This document shows, piece by piece, positions 43,751-52,786 of a stretch of 64,000 bases of DNA (position 1 is its first letter; every line of letters begins with the position of its first letter). A model generated the notes under the pieces. That model was not told the origin of the DNA and searched no databases. It was given only the letters and a program-made list of their open reading frames with translations. This stretch comes from Candidatus Cloacimonadales bacterium (lineage in GTDB: Bacteria > Cloacimonadota > Cloacimonadia > Cloacimonadales > DAONDQ01): assembly GCA_963662275.1 (NCBI GenBank), contig OY759316.1, forward strand, positions 2,304,001-2,368,000, given 5' to 3'. Position numbers and translations under genes: made by a program.

Positions 43751-43984
43751 AATAGTACGCAGCATATACTTCAGTATGTAACCCCTATTAATCCTACAAG
43801 AATGAAATTCCACAGCCTGTGGTGGATGCTCTGCAGAAAAGCAACGTAAACAATACTGCCACGATTCCTGAAGTAATCACCACCTGCACTTGTGGCAACT
43901 CCTTTAGGCTGTGTGGAAGCGACTTCAGGCGGTGAATGCTCTGCAGAAAAGCAGCGTAAACAATGCTGCCACGATTCCTGAAGT

Positions 43985-45845
43985 GAGACTGTTCATGAAG
44001 TTATTCATAATATTCAATAAGTTAGAAAGTAGCAAGTTGAAAAAAGTGGTCGAAACGGTCATAATTTAACATACCTTCCAGAATTGACAGATAAGCTCTG
44101 CTAAGGACACCAAATCACAAGTTAAGCTTTTTGACTAAAATTGAAAAACACGCGATTATAAGTAATGTTTCGAAGCCGTTTCTGACTAAATGTGTAGTTA
44201 AAATCATATAAAATAGTTCTTTACAAGTTTTTTGCTATAGCTTCAATGGCATTTGTTACCTGGTAACAAAAGGGAGGATATTATGACAAAAAAACACTCC
44301 AATTCAAGAAGCGGTAAGTGTTAGTCATGAAAGTAACCAATACCATGTAAGTATTAACGTACCATTTTCATTCACTTTGCCTGAGACAACATCAAACCAC
44401 AAGTTCTTAATAGCGTTTCTACGCTTATTAGTAGGAATAGGCGGAGACAACCTCCTTACACTTCAGCAAATAGCTGATCTGTTTAACTACGCAGACCGCA
44501 GGAATGTACATAATTTCTGGCAAGAGTTTGAGCAGCATGGTCATGATATCCTGGCATATTTAAGCCGGAAAGTTGACCTGCTGGAGTGTATTCCTCAGAT
44601 CGAGAATTTTGTTATCAATAACCTGCTTTTACCTTTAAATGTCATGTATCAGGAGTTCATCAGCCATCATGATTTTAAAATGTCCTATACCACTTTCTGC
44701 AAATATGCTTCTCAGGTCAATTCTCTGTCTGTAGTTAAGCAAGCTCAGAAGCTTCTTCTGAAAAAGACAGTAGGCGGTGATGCTGTACATCTGCTGAAAC
44801 TGCTTGCCGGTCAGCAGAATACACCTGTTATCTGTGACAGACTCCTGGAACAAATGAAGACTGCTAAAGGCAATACATCCCATAGAACCGCCGATGCAAA
44901 GCCGTTCCATAGTCTGGAACGCAAGAACCTGTGTCTGCTGGTACATTACCTGGTTGGAAGCGGTATGAACTTCGAGACGATAGCTTTGCTGCTCAACACC
45001 TGTAAAGCTACAGTCTCAAATCTCTGGCATGAAATCGCTGACCTGCAGAGCCTGATTCTGAACTCAATCGGTAAGTGGAGCGGAAAGATCAGCATTGATG
45101 AGAAATATGTGAAGATCAAAGGTATTCCGTACTATGTCATCAGTATTGTTGATTTTGTGACTCACATCCCTCTGTTTTGTGAGTTGTATCCTGACACAAA
45201 GAAAGAATCATTCGAAGCATGTTTCAGAACCTTCAGACAGCTCTACAGGAAAGATCCAACCCTGATTGTCAGTGATGGCAGTAAATCGTTAGCAGTTGCA
45301 AGAAAAACAGTGTTTCCAAAAGTCCATTACCAACTCTGTAAGTTCCATAAGATACGAAATCTCTTCAAAAGAATCAGTCAATGTCATCTCCCTGAAGACA
45401 GGGACAAGTTCTTTAAGAAGAGGATTATGAAAGCTTTCCGAAGAGAAACGGCGGGCGGAAGGAAAAAGGGTATCGCAAGCCTGACAGCTATTACTCCCCC
45501 AACCGCCGCCGAATACATCAAAAGCAATATCATTAGTGATTGGAGACACCTCAGCAAAGGTTTGACTTCCAATGTCTCTGAACGCTGGAACCGCAAAATC
45601 AAGAAGGTGACATCCGGTAGATTTGGACTAAAATCTGAAGAAACCACCCGCAACCTTGTGTTTTCGCTTTGGTTCAAAGAACTGGTCGATAAAGGTCAAC
45701 CAATCATGCGTCAGGAATCACTTTTAGCAAGTTTAAATATCTCCCGCATATGTCAAGAAAATGTGGATTGGTCGCACTTAGACCACTTTTTCTCTGTCAC
45801 TACCAATAAGGCTGCGTAAAATGGAGGTTAATTTTGAACAGTCTC
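43985..45845 (+). mobile_element. Mutator/IS256-like insertion sequence, copy 1 (1861 bp)
   Basis: TIR GAGACTGTTCA/TGAACAGTCTC; 8-bp TSD CCTGAAGT at 43977-43984 and 45846-45853; matching second copy at 50926. Confidence 0.9.
44377..45819 (+). CDS. DDE transposase, Mutator/IS256-like
   Basis: IDEKYVK, IVSDG, QLCKFH (CxxH), SNVSERWN; N-terminal HTH-like segments. Confidence 0.85.
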   Translation: MPETTSNHKFLIAFLRLLVGIGGDNLLTLQQIADLFNYADRRNVHNFWQEFEQHGHDILAYLSRKVDLLECIPQIENFVINNLLLPLNVMYQEFISHHDFKMSYTTFCKYASQVNSLSVVKQAQKLLLKKTVGGDAVHLLKLLAGQQNTPVICDRLLEQMKTAKGNTSHRTADAKPFHSLERKNLCLLVHYLVGSGMNFETIALLLNTCKATVSNLWHEIADLQSLILNSIGKWSGKISIDEKYVKIKGIPYYVISIVDFVTHIPLFCELYPDTKKESFEACFRTFRQLYRKDPTLIVSDGSKSLAVARKTVFPKVHYQLCKFHKIRNLFKRISQCHLPEDRDKFFKKRIMKAFRRETAGGRKKGIASLTAITPPTAAEYIKSNIISDWRHLSKGLTSNVSERWNRKIKKVTSGRFGLKSEETTRNLVFSLWFKELVDKGQPIMRQESLLASLNISRICQENVDWSHLDHFFSVTTNKAA

Positions 45846-45935: not shown

Positions 45936-46625
45936 ATGAATACCAAAAATAACTACAAACAATATCATCGTGGAGATTTGCCACATATTCAACCTAAAGA
46001 TGGTACTTTTTTTATTACTTTTCGACTAGATATTCCATTATCACAAGAATTCTACTCACTCCTCATGAAGAAAAAGGAAGAAATTAATTCCTCAACATAC
46101 AACATAAAGGATCTTAATGAACGGAACGTAATGTACAATAAAAAACTTTTTGCGTTTAAGGATAACTACTTTGATAAATATCAGCATCAAGATAATATGC
46201 TAAAATACCCTAATATCGCGAAGCTTATTATTGATGAACTACATTACCAGGACAAAAAGCTGTTTGATTTATTTGCTTATACAGTGATGCCGAATCATGT
46301 TCATTTCCTAATCAAACCGTTAACAGATGAAAATGGACAGTATTATTCTATCTCAAAGATCATGAATCTGATAAAAGGAAGAAGTTCAAGGTTTATCAAT
46401 CTGGAATTGAAAAGGTCTGGGACATTATGGCAAAGAGAATACTATGATCATTATGTAAGAAATGAAACTGAATTACATAATATAATCAGGTATATAGCAT
46501 TAAATCCTGTGAAAGCTGGTTTCGTTAATAAGCCTAACGAATGGGACTGGACATGGGTTGCGCAGGAGTTTATTAACCTTTTGGATGATGATTCAGTAAA
46601 AGAGGCGATTGCATTCTGGGGGTAG
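45936..46625 (+). CDS. REP-associated tyrosine transposase (RAYT/TnpA-REP, HUH Y1)
   Basis: LPH...FFITFRL, VMPNHVHFL (HUH), LWQREYYDHYVR, YIALNPVKAG; flanked on both sides by the repeat array. Confidence 0.92.
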   Translation: MNTKNNYKQYHRGDLPHIQPKDGTFFITFRLDIPLSQEFYSLLMKKKEEINSSTYNIKDLNERNVMYNKKLFAFKDNYFDKYQHQDNMLKYPNIAKLIIDELHYQDKKLFDLFAYTVMPNHVHFLIKPLTDENGQYYSISKIMNLIKGRSSRFINLELKRSGTLWQREYYDHYVRNETELHNIIRYIALNPVKAGFVNKPNEWDWTWVAQEFINLLDDDSVKEAIAFWG

Positions 46626-48354
46626 GCAGAAAAGCAACGTAAACAATGCTGCCACGATTCCTGAAGTAATCACCACCTGCATTTGTGGCAACTCCTTTAG
46701 GCTGTGTGGAGGCGACTTCAGGCGATGAATGCTCTGCAGAAAAGCAGCGTAAACAATGCTGCCACGATTCCTGAAGTAATCACCACCTGCACTTGTGGCA
46801 ACTCCTTTAGGCTGTGTGGAAGCGACTTCAGGCGGTGGATGCTCTGCAGAAAAGCAACGTAAACAATGCTGCCACGATTCCTGAAGTAATCACCACTTTC
46901 TCTCGTGGCAACTCCTTTAGGCTGTGTGTAAATCAATTGTGGCAACTCCTTTAGGCTGTGTAGAGGCGACTTCAGGCGGTGGATGCTCTGCAGAAAAGCA
47001 ACGTAAACAATGCTGCCACGATTCCTGAAGTAATCACCACTTTCTCTCGTGGCGACTCCTTTAGGCTGTGTGGAGGCGACTTCAGGTGGTGAATGCTCTG
47101 CAGAAAAGCAGCGTAAACAATGCTGCCACGATTCCTGAAGTAATCACCACTTTCTCTCGTGGCGACTCCTTTAGGCTGTGTGGAGGCGACTTCAGGCGAT
47201 GAATGCTCTGCAGAAAAGCAACGTAAACAATGCTGCCACGATTCCTGAAGTAATCACCACTTTCTCTCGTGGCGACTCCTTTAGGCTGTGTGGAGGCGAC
47301 TTCAGGCGATGAATGCTCTGCAGAAAAGCAACGTAAACAATGCTGCCACGATTCCTGAAGTAATCACCACTTTCTCTCGTGGCAACTCCTTTAGGCTGTG
47401 TGGAAATCAATTGTGGCAACTCCTTTAGGCTGTATGGAGGCGACTTTAGGCGGTTGATACTCTGCAGAAAAGCAACGTAAACAATGCTGCCACGATTCCT
47501 GAAGTAATCACCACCTGCATTTGTGGCAACTCCTTTAGGCTGTGTGTAAATCAATTGTGGCAACTCCTTTAGGCTGTGTAGAGGCGACTTCAGGCGGTGG
47601 ATGCTCTGCAGAAAAGCAACGTAAACAATGCTGCCACGATTCCTGAAGTAATCACCACCTGCACTTGTGGCAACTCCTTTAGGCTGTGTGTAAATCAATT
47701 GTGGCAACTCCTTTAGGCTGTGTAGAGGCGACTTCAGGCGGTGGATGCTCTGCAGAAAAGCAACGTAAACAATGCTGCCACGATTCCTGAAGTAATCACC
47801 ACCTGCATTTGTGGCAACTCCTTTAGTAAGCTGTAGAGGCGACTTCAGGTGGTGAATGCTCTGCAGAAAAGCAGCGTAAACAATGCTGCCACGATTCCTG
47901 AAGTAATCACCACTTTCTCTCGTGGCGACTCCTTTAGGCTGTGTGAAGGCGACTTCAGGCGGTGAATGCTCTGCAGAAAAGCAGCGTTAACGATGCTGCC
48001 ACGATTCCTGAAGTAATCACCACTTTCTCTCGTGGCGACTCCTTTAGTAAGCTGTAGAGGCGACTTCAGGTGGTGAATGCTCTGCAGAAAAGCAGCGTAA
48101 ACAATGCTGCCACGATTCCTGAAGTAATCACCACTTTCTCTCGTGGCGACTCCTTTAGGCTGTGTGGAAGCGACTTCAGGCGGTGAATGCTCTGCAGAAA
48201 AGCAACGTAAACAATGCTGCCACGATTCCTGAAGTAATCACCACTTTCTCTCGTGGCGACTCCTTTAGGCTGTGTGGAAATCAATTGTGGCAACTCCTTT
48301 AGGCTGATATAGTTAGATAGTTATATATTATAATATATTCATAGTACTTGGCTT

Positions 48355-48684
48355 TCTGGAACCCTGCAATGACGCGTAGGGTACCGAAGCGTCATTGCAG
48401 GGTTCCAGAGACGCTGATTTTCGATCTGAATTCTATGATTAAATCGAATATTACTTATCAAAGCTCTCTTGGTTCTACATCCCGATCTTGCTGATATACT
48501 GGATTACCTTCTGATGGTATCCTATTCTTACTTTATCCTATCTGAGATAATACCCGCCGGTGTGCTATAATGAGCTATGGTAGAAGGTCTTGTAAACAAG
48601 CCTTAGTGCCTAATGACTACATCATCCGGCGAGTGAACCAATCTAAACACCTCCATTATTTTTTGACTACTTTTTTTTCTTGGC
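48355..48684 (-). ncRNA. Putative IS110 bridge/seek RNA
   Basis: Two internal-loop domains whose segments match the target repeat (48555-48631) and the element's circle junction (48485-48548), then a 21-bp perfect hairpin (48355-48409); RNA boundaries uncertain. Confidence 0.7.
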
Positions 48685-49962
48685 TCACTGATTATTTTCA
48701 GTTAAATAACCTGCATATAGCTTTCGCTGTTCAGGATCAAACGACCTTTCATATTTAACCATTGAGTACATGATTCCCAGTAATTTACTGCTCAAAGAAA
48801 CGATAGTTTTGACCTTGTTATTACCTCGCTTTTTTACTTGATAATTATATATCTGATTGATTAATTGATTGTTTATAATCATTTCCAGAGTAAGCATATA
48901 CAAGATCCTTCGCAACCTTACTCTTCCTACCTTAGAGATATGATATTGCCCATGGTATTCTCCTGATTGATTGTGTTTTAAACTCAATCCGGCAAGTTTG
49001 ACTAAATCCTGATATCGACCATATTGATTGATATCTCCAGTCTCCGCCAGAATTAACCCCACTGATACTTTACTCAAACCAGGTATTGTCACCAATAACG
49101 ATCCATAACTGATTTTATCTACACATGTCATGATTGCTGTTTTGATTTGTTTGAGATGGTATTGTTTATAGCTGATATCCTCATAGATCGCATTTATGAC
49201 CACTCTCGCACTATCCGCTCCCTGACTCATGCCAATACTTGTTAGAGATACCTGATATAAACTGTGAAGCTTCTCTGTAGCTATGCACCCTTTGCTTTTT
49301 GTTTTCATAATCTTCAGAAAATTCTCATATCCTGCATTTACGATATCCTGAGGAAGAGGAAAACACTCCATGATATACATTACTCCCGTACTGTTAAATT
49401 TGAAAAAGTTACTCAATTCAGGAAAGTAACAGGCATAAGAGGCTTCCAGATAGTTCCTCTGCCTGCGAATATCTGTGATTAACTGGTGATAATAAGCTGC
49501 ATAGTTGTTCAACTCCGCGAAAACACCTTCAGGTCTCCGATGATGGATGCTCTTGCCCATTCTTAACAGAGAGGTAATGATAATACTGTCTTTCAAATCA
49601 TTCTTGGATGGATGATTATCTTCAATATCCTTCCATCTTTTAGTGTGTAATGGGTTGATGCTTTGGATTTGATAGCAGCGTTCTTCCAAGAAGTACTGGA
49701 GTGGCTTTACATATGAACCTGTTGGTTCCATTCCAAATACAATCTCGTTCAGATTCCACAAACGCTTTTGCTGTTCTGCTTCTTTTAGCAGATACTGAAA
49801 ACCATCATGATTGTTTGTAATAAAAAATGGCTTACGCTTCCGTTCACCTGTAAAATCACAAAAATACACACTGTGTTTGTGCTTGCTGATATCAATGCCA
49901 ACAAGCATCATTTCTGAGTTGACAAAAAACCTCTTTGGGTTAGATTTTGATGTGGTAATCAT
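48685..49962 (-). CDS. IS110 family DEDD recombinase/transposase
   Basis: VGIDISK, GMEPTG, KNDLKDS (DEDD); C-terminal IPG...AETGD..LAGL...QSG motif. Confidence 0.95.
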   Translation of the reverse strand: MITTSKSNPKRFFVNSEMMLVGIDISKHKHSVYFCDFTGERKRKPFFITNNHDGFQYLLKEAEQQKRLWNLNEIVFGMEPTGSYVKPLQYFLEERCYQIQSINPLHTKRWKDIEDNHPSKNDLKDSIIITSLLRMGKSIHHRRPEGVFAELNNYAAYYHQLITDIRRQRNYLEASYACYFPELSNFFKFNSTGVMYIMECFPLPQDIVNAGYENFLKIMKTKSKGCIATEKLHSLYQVSLTSIGMSQGADSARVVINAIYEDISYKQYHLKQIKTAIMTCVDKISYGSLLVTIPGLSKVSVGLILAETGDINQYGRYQDLVKLAGLSLKHNQSGEYHGQYHISKVGRVRLRRILYMLTLEMIINNQLINQIYNYQVKKRGNNKVKTIVSLSSKLLGIMYSMVKYERSFDPEQRKLYAGYLTENNQ

Positions 49963-50363
49963 TGTTACCTCCTTTGTTGATTTGATCTATGTATATCAAC
50001 GAGGGAGGTTTTTCTACCTTAATTTTCTAACCTTCCTATAGTAAGCTGTGTGGAAGCGACTTCAGGCGGTGAATGCTCTGCAGAAAAGCAGCGTTAACGA
50101 TGCTGCCACGATTCCTGAAGTAATCACCACTTTCTCTCGTGGCAACTCCTTTAGGCTGTGTGGAGGCGACTTCAGGCGATGAATGCTCTGCAGAAAAGCA
50201 ACGTAAACAATGCTGCCACGATTCCTGAAGTAATCACCACTTTCTCTCGTGGCAACTCCTTTAGGCTGTGTGGAAATCAATTGTGGCAACTCCTTTAGGC
50301 TGTGTGGAGGCGACTTCAGGGGGTGAATGCTCTGCAGAAAAGCAGCGTAAACAATGCTGCCAC

Positions 50364-50518
50364 CGCATACAGTTGGACTTCGAATCACTTTCGATATTGA
50401 ATGTACCATTTCCTAAGTTTTTCAGAATTTTGATGTTACCTGAGGTTGTGCTTCCTGATACAATGAGATCCTGATCACTATCTAAATCAAGATCTGAAGT
50501 TGTAAATTGTCTCGGCAT
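50364..50518 (-). pseudogene. FG-GAP/VCBS repeat gene fragment truncated by the array
   Basis: DLDLDSDQDLIVS...ILKNLGNGTF reading runs directly into array sequence. Confidence 0.5.
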
Positions 50519-50925: not shown

Positions 50926-52786
50926 GAGACTGTTCATGAAGTTATTCATAATATTCAATAAGTTAGAAAGTAGCAAGTTGAAAAAAGTGGTCGAAACGGT
51001 CATAATTTAACATACCTTCCAGAATTGACAGATAAGCTCTGCTAAGGACACCAAATCACAAGTTAAGCTTTTTGACTAAAATTGAAAAACACGCGATTAT
51101 AAGTAATGTTTCGAAGCCGTTTCTGACTAAATGTGTAGTTAAAATCATATAAAATAGTTCTTTACAAGTTTTTTGCTATAGCTTCAATGGCATTTGTTAC
51201 CTGGTAACAAAAGGGAGGATATTATGACAAAAAAACACTCCAATTCAAGAAGCGGTAAGTGTTAGTCATGAAAGTAACCAATACCATGTAAGTATTAACG
51301 TACCATTTTCATTCACTTTGCCTGAGACAACATCAAACCACAAGTTCTTAATAGCGTTTCTACGCTTATTAGTAGGAATAGGCGGAGACAACCTCCTTAC
51401 ACTTCAGCAAATAGCTGATCTGTTTAACTACGCAGACCGCAGGAATGTACATAATTTCTGGCAAGAGTTTGAGCAGCATGGTCATGATATCCTGGCATAT
51501 TTAAGCCGGAAAGTTGACCTGCTGGAGTGTATTCCTCAGATCGAGAATTTTGTTATCAATAACCTGCTTTTACCTTTAAATGTCATGTATCAGGAGTTCA
51601 TCAGCCATCATGATTTTAAAATGTCCTATACCACTTTCTGCAAATATGCTTCTCAGGTCAATTCTCTGTCTGTAGTTAAGCAAGCTCAGAAGCTTCTTCT
51701 GAAAAAGACAGTAGGCGGTGATGCTGTACATCTGCTGAAACTGCTTGCCGGTCAGCAGAATACACCTGTTATCTGTGACAGACTCCTGGAACAAATGAAG
51801 ACTGCTAAAGGCAATACATCCCATAGAACCGCCGATGCAAAGCCGTTCCATAGTCTGGAACGCAAGAACCTGTGTCTGCTGGTACATTACCTGGTTGGAA
51901 GCGGTATGAACTTCGAGACGATAGCTTTGCTGCTCAACACCTGTAAAGCTACAGTCTCAAATCTCTGGCATGAAATCGCTGACCTGCAGAGCCTGATTCT
52001 GAACTCAATCGGTAAGTGGAGCGGAAAGATCAGCATTGATGAGAAATATGTGAAGATCAAAGGTATTCCGTACTATGTCATCAGTATTGTTGATTTTGTG
52101 ACTCACATCCCTCTGTTTTGTGAGTTGTATCCTGACACAAAGAAAGAATCATTCGAAGCATGTTTCAGAACCTTCAGACAGCTCTACAGGAAAGATCCAA
52201 CCCTGATTGTCAGTGATGGCAGTAAATCGTTAGCAGTTGCAAGAAAAACAGTGTTTCCAAAAGTCCATTACCAACTCTGTAAGTTCCATAAGATACGAAA
52301 TCTCTTCAAAAGAATCAGTCAATGTCATCTCCCTGAAGACAGGGACAAGTTCTTTAAGAAGAGGATTATGAAAGCTTTCCGAAGAGAAACGGCGGGCGGA
52401 AGGAAAAAGGGTATCGCAAGCCTGACAGCTATTACTCCCCCAACCGCCGCCGAATACATCAAAAGCAATATCATTAGTGATTGGAGACACCTCAGCAAAG
52501 GTTTGACTTCCAATGTCTCTGAACGCTGGAACCGCAAAATCAAGAAGGTGACATCCGGTAGATTTGGACTAAAATCTGAAGAAACCACCCGCAACCTTGT
52601 GTTTTCGCTTTGGTTCAAAGAACTGGTCGATAAAGGTCAACCAATCATGCGTCAGGAATCACTTTTAGCAAGTTTAAATATCTCCCGCATATGTCAAGAA
52701 AATGTGGATTGGTCGCACTTAGACCACTTTTTCTCTGTCACTACCAATAAGGCTGCGTAAAATGGAGGTTAATTTTGAACAGTCTC
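50926..52786 (+). mobile_element. Mutator/IS256-like insertion sequence, copy 2
   Basis: Same TIRs, length and protein as copy 1; 8-bp TSD AAATGAAA at 50918-50925 and 52787-52794. Confidence 0.9.
51318..52760 (+). CDS. DDE transposase, Mutator/IS256-like (same protein as 44377-45819)
   Basis: Identical translation. Confidence 0.85.
   Translation: MPETTSNHKFLIAFLRLLVGIGGDNLLTLQQIADLFNYADRRNVHNFWQEFEQHGHDILAYLSRKVDLLECIPQIENFVINNLLLPLNVMYQEFISHHDFKMSYTTFCKYASQVNSLSVVKQAQKLLLKKTVGGDAVHLLKLLAGQQNTPVICDRLLEQMKTAKGNTSHRTADAKPFHSLERKNLCLLVHYLVGSGMNFETIALLLNTCKATVSNLWHEIADLQSLILNSIGKWSGKISIDEKYVKIKGIPYYVISIVDFVTHIPLFCELYPDTKKESFEACFRTFRQLYRKDPTLIVSDGSKSLAVARKTVFPKVHYQLCKFHKIRNLFKRISQCHLPEDRDKFFKKRIMKAFRRETAGGRKKGIASLTAITPPTAAEYIKSNIISDWRHLSKGLTSNVSERWNRKIKKVTSGRFGLKSEETTRNLVFSLWFKELVDKGQPIMRQESLLASLNISRICQENVDWSHLDHFFSVTTNKAA

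Follow-up and report, generated by a model that had tools for sequence, protein, structure and literature searches.

The closest described systems to the element considered here are the IS1111-type insertion sequences (ISs) that carry a seekRNA (ISEc11, ISKpn4 and ISPa11; PMC11187229) and IS621 with its bridge RNA (PMC11208160; PMC11208158). According to the accessible text of PMC11187229, the former possess a long non-coding region downstream of the transposase gene, a position also reported there for some IS110-family members, their top-strand guide lies 5' of the bottom-strand guide, and the two guide matches overlap at the insertion point. All three features recur in an IS110-family element of a Candidatus Cloacimonadales bacterium, located on the minus strand of the 64,000-nucleotide stretch of DNA that was analysed (contig OY759316.1, positions 2,304,001 to 2,368,000; hereafter the window). 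A long non-coding end follows its transposase gene, a predicted guide CAUUAGGC precedes a predicted guide CAUAGC, and their matches overlap at the insertion point. An active insertion sequence very likely has its guide RNA, a bridge RNA or seekRNA, in this region. Taken as a whole, the sequence data describe an element that is probably active and bridge/seekRNA-guided, and whose guides would specify the address CATA-GC-CTAATG.

As far as they could be consulted, the IS621 reports describe a bridge RNA with two internal loops, for target and donor respectively, in which left and right guides stand around an inner hairpin, and this architecture is shared by the RNA predicted here. As in IS621, the core, probably a dinucleotide, is covered by the guides, and the DEDD and Ser-Gly residues of the recombinase are conserved. 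Several features differ. The RNA of IS621 lies in the left end, whereas here it lies in the right end and the guide order is reversed in both loops. The core is CT in IS621 and GC here, the protein is approximately 100 aa longer than that of IS621 and distantly related to it (profile E 3e-20), and an additional conserved 21-bp hairpin stands 3' of the RNA.

The predicted guide RNA and its four matches

Six copies of the IS, 100% identical over 1745 nt and each with an intact 425-aa frame, were found in the genome (4.38 Mb, one contig). AGC was present at both junctions in all six, with no further target duplication. In the window copy, the left junction reads in the IS sense ...CACAGC/TTACTATAGG... 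(50050-50035; the slash marks the junction, here and below) and the right junction ...CTATATCAGC/CTAAAGGAG (48312-48294), the right end ...CTATATCAGC occupying 48312-48303. Logan unitigs of 1747 nt terminated at 48303 and 50047, and identical insertion flanks were present in contigs of sequencing runs from two studies. A non-coding stretch of 378 nt separates the stop codon of the 425-aa frame from the right end of the IS. It holds all the motifs listed in an earlier annotation made from the sequence alone (hereafter the initial annotation), each of which was recovered at its given place when the minus strand was read. Partial modules, either the transposase gene alone or the 3' part alone, were not found in the genome, which holds the six full copies only.

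The initial annotation had proposed an intact IS110-family element with target- and donor-binding loops in its 3' end, and this proposal was supported by the six identical copies, by the agreement of the guides with the consensus of the insertion sites and by covariation in a relative. RNAalifold, together with a hand-checked structure, gave a two-domain fold of 36 pairs. In the mechanism that we propose, a segment of about 158 nt downstream of the gene would fold into two stem-closed internal loops. Within CATA-GC-CTAATG, the segment CAUUAGGC of the first loop would be the partner of the top strand on the right side of the insertion point, and CAUAGC that of the bottom strand on the left side. 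The segments UAAAGUAAG and UAUAUCAGC of the second loop would pair likewise with the joined element ends ...TATATCA-GC-TTACTATA.... By analogy with IS621 and ISEc11, the RNA would be transcribed with or after the transposase message, be bound by a recombinase tetramer and bring the excised element and the target together, strand exchange taking place at the GC core via a phosphoserine intermediate. The window copy would have landed in the near-cognate site CACA-GC-CTAAAG, one U:G wobble and one distal mismatch being tolerated.

The expectation for such matches by chance was estimated from 20,000 shuffles of the 372-nt non-coding end. An exact 8-mer complement of the flank-derived right target appeared in 0.44% of the shuffles, the 6-mer of the left target in 7.5%, a complement of the left end with one mismatch permitted in 10%, and the 9-mer of the right end in 0.2%. 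The product of these four chances is about 7e-8, order and loop placement being left uncounted. The 9-mer of the second domain had been said to match the right-end junction, and TATATCAGC does equal the right end plus core at nine of nine positions (eight of nine in the relative described below). The folding z-score of the 398-nt end was -4.6, and all 72 cells of the consensus structure were paired, as against 35-50% when the 3' partners were slid. A fold and a covariance model, both suggested in the initial annotation, could be obtained. The model (R2), run on 151 genomes of the order, found only the six IS copies and the seven of the relative, with no orphan RNA.

Analysis of the flanks of the six copies alone gave the majority consensus aCATAGC/CTAATGt. 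Its two halves are those of the target guides, CAUAGC being the left half and CAUUAGGC the reverse complement of GC+CTAATG. Five of the six copies have left flanks ending in ...ATAGC, and the window copy alone has ...ACAGC, while right flanks start with CTAATA, CTGTAG, CTAACG, TTAATG and CTAATA, and with CTAAAG in the window copy. Compared with CATAGCCTAATG, the six sites show 2, 2, 3, 1, 2 and 2 mismatches out of 12. In five of six copies, AGC was preceded by T on the left side and by C on the right side, so that the shared core can be at most AGC. The guide model predicts this difference, since the target guide has AUAGC where the donor guide has AUCAGC. By analogy, the core is most likely GC rather than AGC, and the GCTG core claimed earlier had to be abandoned on account of the same base.

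The transposase matched PF01548 (N-terminal RuvC-like DEDD domain; E 4e-26) and PF02371 (C-terminal Tnp domain; E 9.4e-16), both above gathering scores, and NF033542 ('IS110 family RNA-guided transposase') with 177.2 bits for a cut-off of 140. In a profile built on four relatives, residues D24, E79, D122, D125 and S333-G334 aligned onto D11, E60, D102, D105 and S241-G242 of IS621, the numbers of the latter being those given in the accessible part of PMC11208158 and a two-residue offset in the chain numbering being inferred. The catalytic D/E/D/D and Ser-Gly residues were invariant in all four relatives. To judge from these residues, the recombinase is an intact DEDD plus Ser enzyme.

A related element with another target site

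When the proteins of 203 genomes from the order were searched, a close relative was found in another Cloacimonadales genome (G095), where it is present in seven copies. Its ends are TTGCTATATT... and ...CTATATCAGC. The transposases are only 52% identical, whereas the 3' ends reach 87% mean column identity, and the first guide is preceded in both elements by 17 identical bases (CGCCGGATGATGTAGT plus one). The guide columns of the relative read UCCUAUGU and UGUAGC and fit its own site, TGTAGC/ATAGGA: UCCUAUGU pairs with ATAGGA preceded by GC or AC, and UGUAGC equals TGTAGC. Its left flanks end in (T)GTAGC in six of seven copies, and its right flanks begin with ATAG in six of seven, with ATAGGA in two. 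At non-core guide positions, each element fits its own consensus at 9/9, whereas the guides of the window element's genome (G000) fit the site of the relative at 3/9, a count made in this direction only. The donor side followed the same pattern, since the sole left-end difference within the paired stretch, TTACT versus TTGCT (A to G), is mirrored in the donor guide by GUAAG versus GCAAG. The covariation of guide and target that the initial annotation had put forward as a check was therefore observed in one relative, the guides changing with their own target and left end. At the sequence level, the two elements would represent a natural reprogramming of target guides.

The helices themselves varied little. 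The 7 bp of the target-loop inner hairpin are common to both elements, one of these pairs having undergone a compensatory change (A-U to G-C), and the closing stem of the donor domain shows one compensatory pair and one one-sided change. In the 21-bp hairpin, 10 of the 21 stem pairs were changed on both sides with none broken, while its top six pairs and its 13-nt loop were conserved (UUCGGUACCCUAC versus UCCGGUACCCUCC). Two additional pairs are predicted inside this loop, and the distance from hairpin to right end is 48 nt in the window element and 47 nt in the relative. A terminator scan found no U-tract after the hairpin. It may, at a guess, be the 3' boundary of the guide transcript, a stabiliser or processing site for it, or a protein-binding site.

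The pair of elements is of interest as a clean natural bridge-RNA pair, in which the scaffold is alike, the target loops differ and each RNA fits its own six or seven sites, and it would document natural reprogramming in the uncultured phylum Cloacimonadota. The copies standing at sites with one to three mismatches or wobbles constitute a natural record of off-target use. The bridge-RNA mechanism, known since 2024, is unchanged by the present findings.

Three further observations concern the relative. Five of its seven sites are located at the base of a short palindrome (ATAG-stem-loop-stem-CTGT), so that targeting akin to that of repetitive extragenic palindromes (REPs) is clearer there. Two of the seven copies (L020 and L022) have AAC instead of AGC at the right-hand core. 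The right-target guide of the relative ends in ..GU, which forms a perfect match with AC and a wobble-containing one with GC, and these copies may record insertion into variant-core sites. Lastly, contigs in runs X1, X3, X4 and X5 contain the scaffold continuing at 48616 into guide sequence of the relative's type, indicating for all four runs that both elements or their hosts were in the same samples.

Competing explanations

Several observations weigh against the guide-RNA interpretation. The covariation evidence comes from one relative only. Compensatory changes affect just 2 of the 36 pairs, and in a control 120 of 500 shuffles attained the observed value as well. Because the helices are nearly invariant and this control was not significant, the fold is weakly tested; what the scaffold shows is conservation, not proof by covariation. 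Pairing of the right-donor guide is incomplete, with 8/9 positions here and only five contiguous pairs in the relative. No perfect cognate site was found genome-wide, compared with 9 sites with one mismatch and 293 with two, and the copy at genome position 1703249 occupies a site with 3/12 mismatches. No Rfam family reached its gathering score; the four matches with E up to 1 between positions 44000 and 53000 all fell far under the gathering scores, two of them being microRNA models on the 21-bp hairpin. A promoter and terminator scan gave 6 promoter-like sites, for 6.7 expected from shuffles, and no terminators, and there was no RNA run among the sequencing runs listed as holding the element. 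A circle joint linking right end to left end was also lacking in the contigs of four runs, although contigs drop rare forms.

Imperfect sites have precedents in the sources available to us. The main natural target of IS621, ATCAGGCCTAC, lies one position apart from the encoded ATCGGGCCTAC (PMC11208160), and partial matches are reported to account for many off-target insertions (bioRxiv 10.64898/2026.08.31.748434).

A reported joint from 48302 to 50045, skipping 1742 bases, was considered as an empty site or excision product and rejected: its shorter side has 23-33 bases only. The joint looks like any uninterrupted array unit and is therefore no evidence of an empty site or of excision.

Among the alternatives, the one favored by the initial annotation would have the RNA tuned to the repeat of the tandem array that follows a RAYT gene in the window, the array being a dedicated multi-copy landing pad. 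We now regard this as unlikely. The array begins exactly at the RAYT stop codon and consists of about 20 units, and the window copy does lie inside it. The array contains 18 copies of the 12-mer CACAGCCTAAAG, all on the minus strand, and this is the commonest single near-cognate in the genome (it accounts for 23 of the 77 sites that combine one mismatch with one wobble); 19 of the 23 are inside the window, all in the IS orientation. REP-targeting IS110-family elements are also known from the accessible literature (PMC11208160; PMC12288879), including ISPpu9 and ISPpu10 of Pseudomonas putida (PMC12288879; bioRxiv 10.64898/2026.03.19.712850). Part of the claim accordingly stands, the array repeat being near-cognate: as had been noted of CATAGC, the guide meets the window site CACAGC/CTAAAG through one U:G wobble on the left, with an A:A mismatch in the distal part of the right guide. 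The guides, however, encode the flank consensus CATAGCCTAATG and not CACAGCCTAAAG.

The distribution of the copies also argues against a landing pad. The other five copies were found in other, unrelated repeats with 1-11 paralogous copies each across the insertion point; counted together, the six sites represent no fewer than five repeat families. The five copies do not sit in TTTAG-GCTG-TG, the context that the initial annotation had suggested checking, and the consensus is CATAGC/CTAATG instead. The window contains 19 array-type sites, of which a single one carries an insertion. The motif A[TC]AGC[CT]T[AG] has 14 hits downstream of this RAYT gene and 0-1 at the other 13 RAYT loci, and was found in the flanks at only 1 of the 14 loci examined. 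Taken together, these counts indicate that the array is a near-cognate site hit once and that the RNA was not written for it; the genome's most abundant near-cognate site, a RAYT-adjacent tandem repeat, has thus been used a single time. One in six copies lies in the REP family of a RAYT gene, whereas an element targeting such repeats would have most of its copies there. The element resembles ISPpu9 and ISPpu10 in its insertion into intergenic repeats able to form stem-loops, as do the palindrome-associated sites of the G095 relative, but here at least five repeat families are involved and only one is RAYT-associated. In the searchable full texts, our literature search returned no paper linking RAYT with IS110 or bridge RNA.

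The copy at 1703249 stands at the edge of a second tandem array (G000:C1:1702344-1703251), with units of about 173 bp in at least five copies, and every unit has an identical near-cognate site, GATCATAGCCTGTAGTGG. The left flank of this copy matches hundreds of places in 7-base steps (e.g. 720741-720861 and 1567108-1567228), which reveals many heptamer tandem-repeat tracts in the genome.

A second alternative, which we consider quite improbable, takes the internal matches for DNA features instead of RNA guides, either duplicated end boxes allowing alternative circles or protein-binding sites. At the DNA level, the left-donor guide necessarily duplicates the right end inside the element, and the accessible account of ISPpu9 proposes that its A/A' and B/B' boxes allow alternative circles, the element forming several circle types and its downstream small RNA being dispensable (PMC12288879). 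Against this view, two of the four segments match host flanks, not the element, and change with the host site in the relative. All four, moreover, stand in loops of the conserved two-domain fold, and the RNA was found inside full copies only, with no partial module in the genome. Least plausible of all is that the RNA gene is a relic of an element that is immobile, or mobile without it: the lack of RNA runs among the holders of the element and of a perfect target in the genome would suit this view, but six fully identical copies with intact frames, the same insertion flanks in the contigs of two studies and a scaffold far better conserved than the transposase speak against it.

Group placement, feature coordinates and neighborhood

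The guide-RNA interpretation leaves the affiliation of the element to be considered, and its characters were found to be mixed. Published seekRNAs are either short (70-100 nt) or long (145-170 nt) in the available text of PMC11187229; the target domain predicted here (82 nt) would fall in the short range and both domains together (about 158 nt) in the long one, the lengths being predicted. The element has the short left end and long right end of the IS1111 group (82 nt versus 378 nt). IS1111-type transposases, on the other hand, have 330-350 aa, compared with 425 aa here, and BLASTP against the IS4321 transposase of R751 gave 22% identity over 145 residues, in the C-terminal domain only. IS621 and ISCro4 lay at similar distances from the transposase (profile E about 1e-20, that for IS621 having been given above). 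According to the consulted part of PMC11208160, subterminal inverted repeats of the IS1111 group have 7-17 bp and the donor loop is a multi-loop in many members, whereas the present element has a repeat of about 5 bp (TATAG) and donor guides in a simple internal loop. No exact inverted repeat of at least 6 bp was found at matching subterminal positions. Neither does the element resemble the narrow IS110 group (IS621, ISEc21), given the position of its RNA in the right end and its reversed guide order.

On sequence grounds, the element is one with an IS1111-type RNA layout, a long IS110-like transposase and a subterminal repeat of about 5 bp. This combination bears on the distinction between the two groups, as IS1111-type RNA position and guide order appear compatible with a recombinase that is long and IS110-like and with a nearly absent subterminal repeat. 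A bolder proposal, possible but rather doubtful, is that it represents a rare distinct lineage of bridge recombinases mixing IS110 and IS1111 features, in which the hairpin might be required as a 3' processing or termination signal or as a recombinase loading site.

Close relatives were scarce. Among 5.8 billion protein clusters only two close proteins were found (56% and 49% identity), the next having 33% or lower. Six of 203 genomes of the order had a match at E up to 1e-30, of which only G095 exceeded 31% identity, and 4 of 232 genomes of the phylum had one at E up to 1e-50. A protein search of genome contigs yielded no relative. A search with an alignment of the two proteins recovered the G095 genome only, and found no relative in metagenome contigs. 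Plasmids gave 938 matching records, all below 60% identity with 32% as the best value, and the best plasmid-borne relatives were Bacillota IS110-family genes with about 30% identity. The searchable supplements of PMC11208160 contained no Cloacimonas name.

A 16-base scaffold pattern screened in metagenome contigs retrieved 121 stretches with 124 matches, which were taken as chance hits: 10 had CCGGCG in range, 1 had a hairpin arm and none had both, and their sequences were unlike the RNA.

In four distant relatives from the order (L015-L018, in G168, G123, G103 and G145; 26-31% identity), the transposase gene is followed by 240-470 nt and preceded by about 100-150 nt. A downstream non-coding region may be a feature of a wider clade. 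None of the four had an RNA alignable with that of the window element or yielded flanks, and they were not used as support.

Table 1. Coordinates of the insertion sequence, its predicted RNA parts and the adjacent RAYT array (window positions)
Feature	Position	Strand	Remarks
IS110-family insertion sequence	48303..50048	minus	CAGC tetramer at both junctions; junctions read; six copies
Element proper	48305..50044	minus	from 50044 (TTACTATAGG...) to 48305 (...CTATATCA)
Shared core GC	50046-50045 and 48304-48303	minus	
Transposase/recombinase gene, 425 aa	48685..49962	minus	PF01548, PF02371, NF033542
Left non-coding end, 82 nt	49963..50044	minus	first bases TTACTATA form the right-donor half-site
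Right end CTATATCA plus core GC (left-donor half-site)	48303..48312	minus	
Predicted bridge/seekRNA core, 158 nt, two stem-closed internal loops	48477..48634	minus	consensus structure with the G095 relative
Predicted target-binding domain, 82 nt	48552..48633	minus	13-bp closing stem CTCGCCGG-TG-TGT with GCA-CA-CCGGCGGG
Closing-stem motifs	CGCCGG 48631-48626, CCGGCG 48560-48555	minus	
Predicted right-target guide CAUUAGGC (DNA CATTAGGC)	48608..48615	minus	pairs with top-strand GC+CTAATG
Target-loop inner hairpin	48584..48604	minus	arms AAGGCTTG and CAAGACCTT; one bulged A
Predicted left-target guide CAUAGC (DNA CATAGC)	48574..48579	minus	same sense as left flank plus core; pairs with bottom strand
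Predicted donor-binding domain	48478..48549	minus	9-bp closing stem UAUCUC-GAU with AUC-GGGAUG
Predicted right-donor guide UAAAGUAAG (DNA TAAAGTAAG)	48527..48535	minus	pairs with C+TTACTATA of left end
Donor-loop inner hairpin	48501..48522	minus	arms GGAUACC and GGUAAUCC; 7 pairs, invariant in both elements
Donor-hairpin arms, DNA	GGATACC 48522-48516, GGTAATCC 48508-48501	minus	
Predicted left-donor guide UAUAUCAGC (DNA TATATCAGC)	48490..48498	minus	identical to right end plus core 48311-48303
21-bp hairpin, 13-nt loop	48355..48409	minus	48 nt from right end; G095 counterpart L026 1148-1215 (-)
Left target half-site of window copy, CACAGC	50045..50050	minus	cognate CATAGC; U:G wobble
Right target half-site of window copy, GCCTAAAG	48297..48304	minus	cognate GCCTAATG; one A:A mismatch
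RAYT gene	45936..46625	plus	NF047646 98 bits for a cut-off of 80; PF01797 E 7.5e-13
Tandem array, units of 110 and 144 bp	46626..48302, resumes 50045-50370		interrupted by the IS

RAYT genes are usually reported as single-copy. The RAYT model had 15 matches in this genome, an unusually high number, of which 8 were above the cut-off. In the window, the RAYT gene, the array and the IS110-family element are bracketed in direct orientation by two 100% identical IS copies of 1861 bp (43985-45845 and 50926-52786, plus strand), which encode a 480-aa MULE/IS256-like transposase. The gene of this transposase had 39 BLAST hits in the genome, and at least 21 of them were full-length and 100% identical. 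A 63-bp fragment of the array (43910-43972), 97% like 50301-50363, lies just before the first of the two copies. Finally, a short frame at about 50385-50515 on the minus strand starts with ATGCCGAGACAA..., contains ...DLDSDQDLIVSG...NLGNGTF... and runs into the array; judged from its sequence, it resembles the remnant of a repeat-protein gene truncated by the array.

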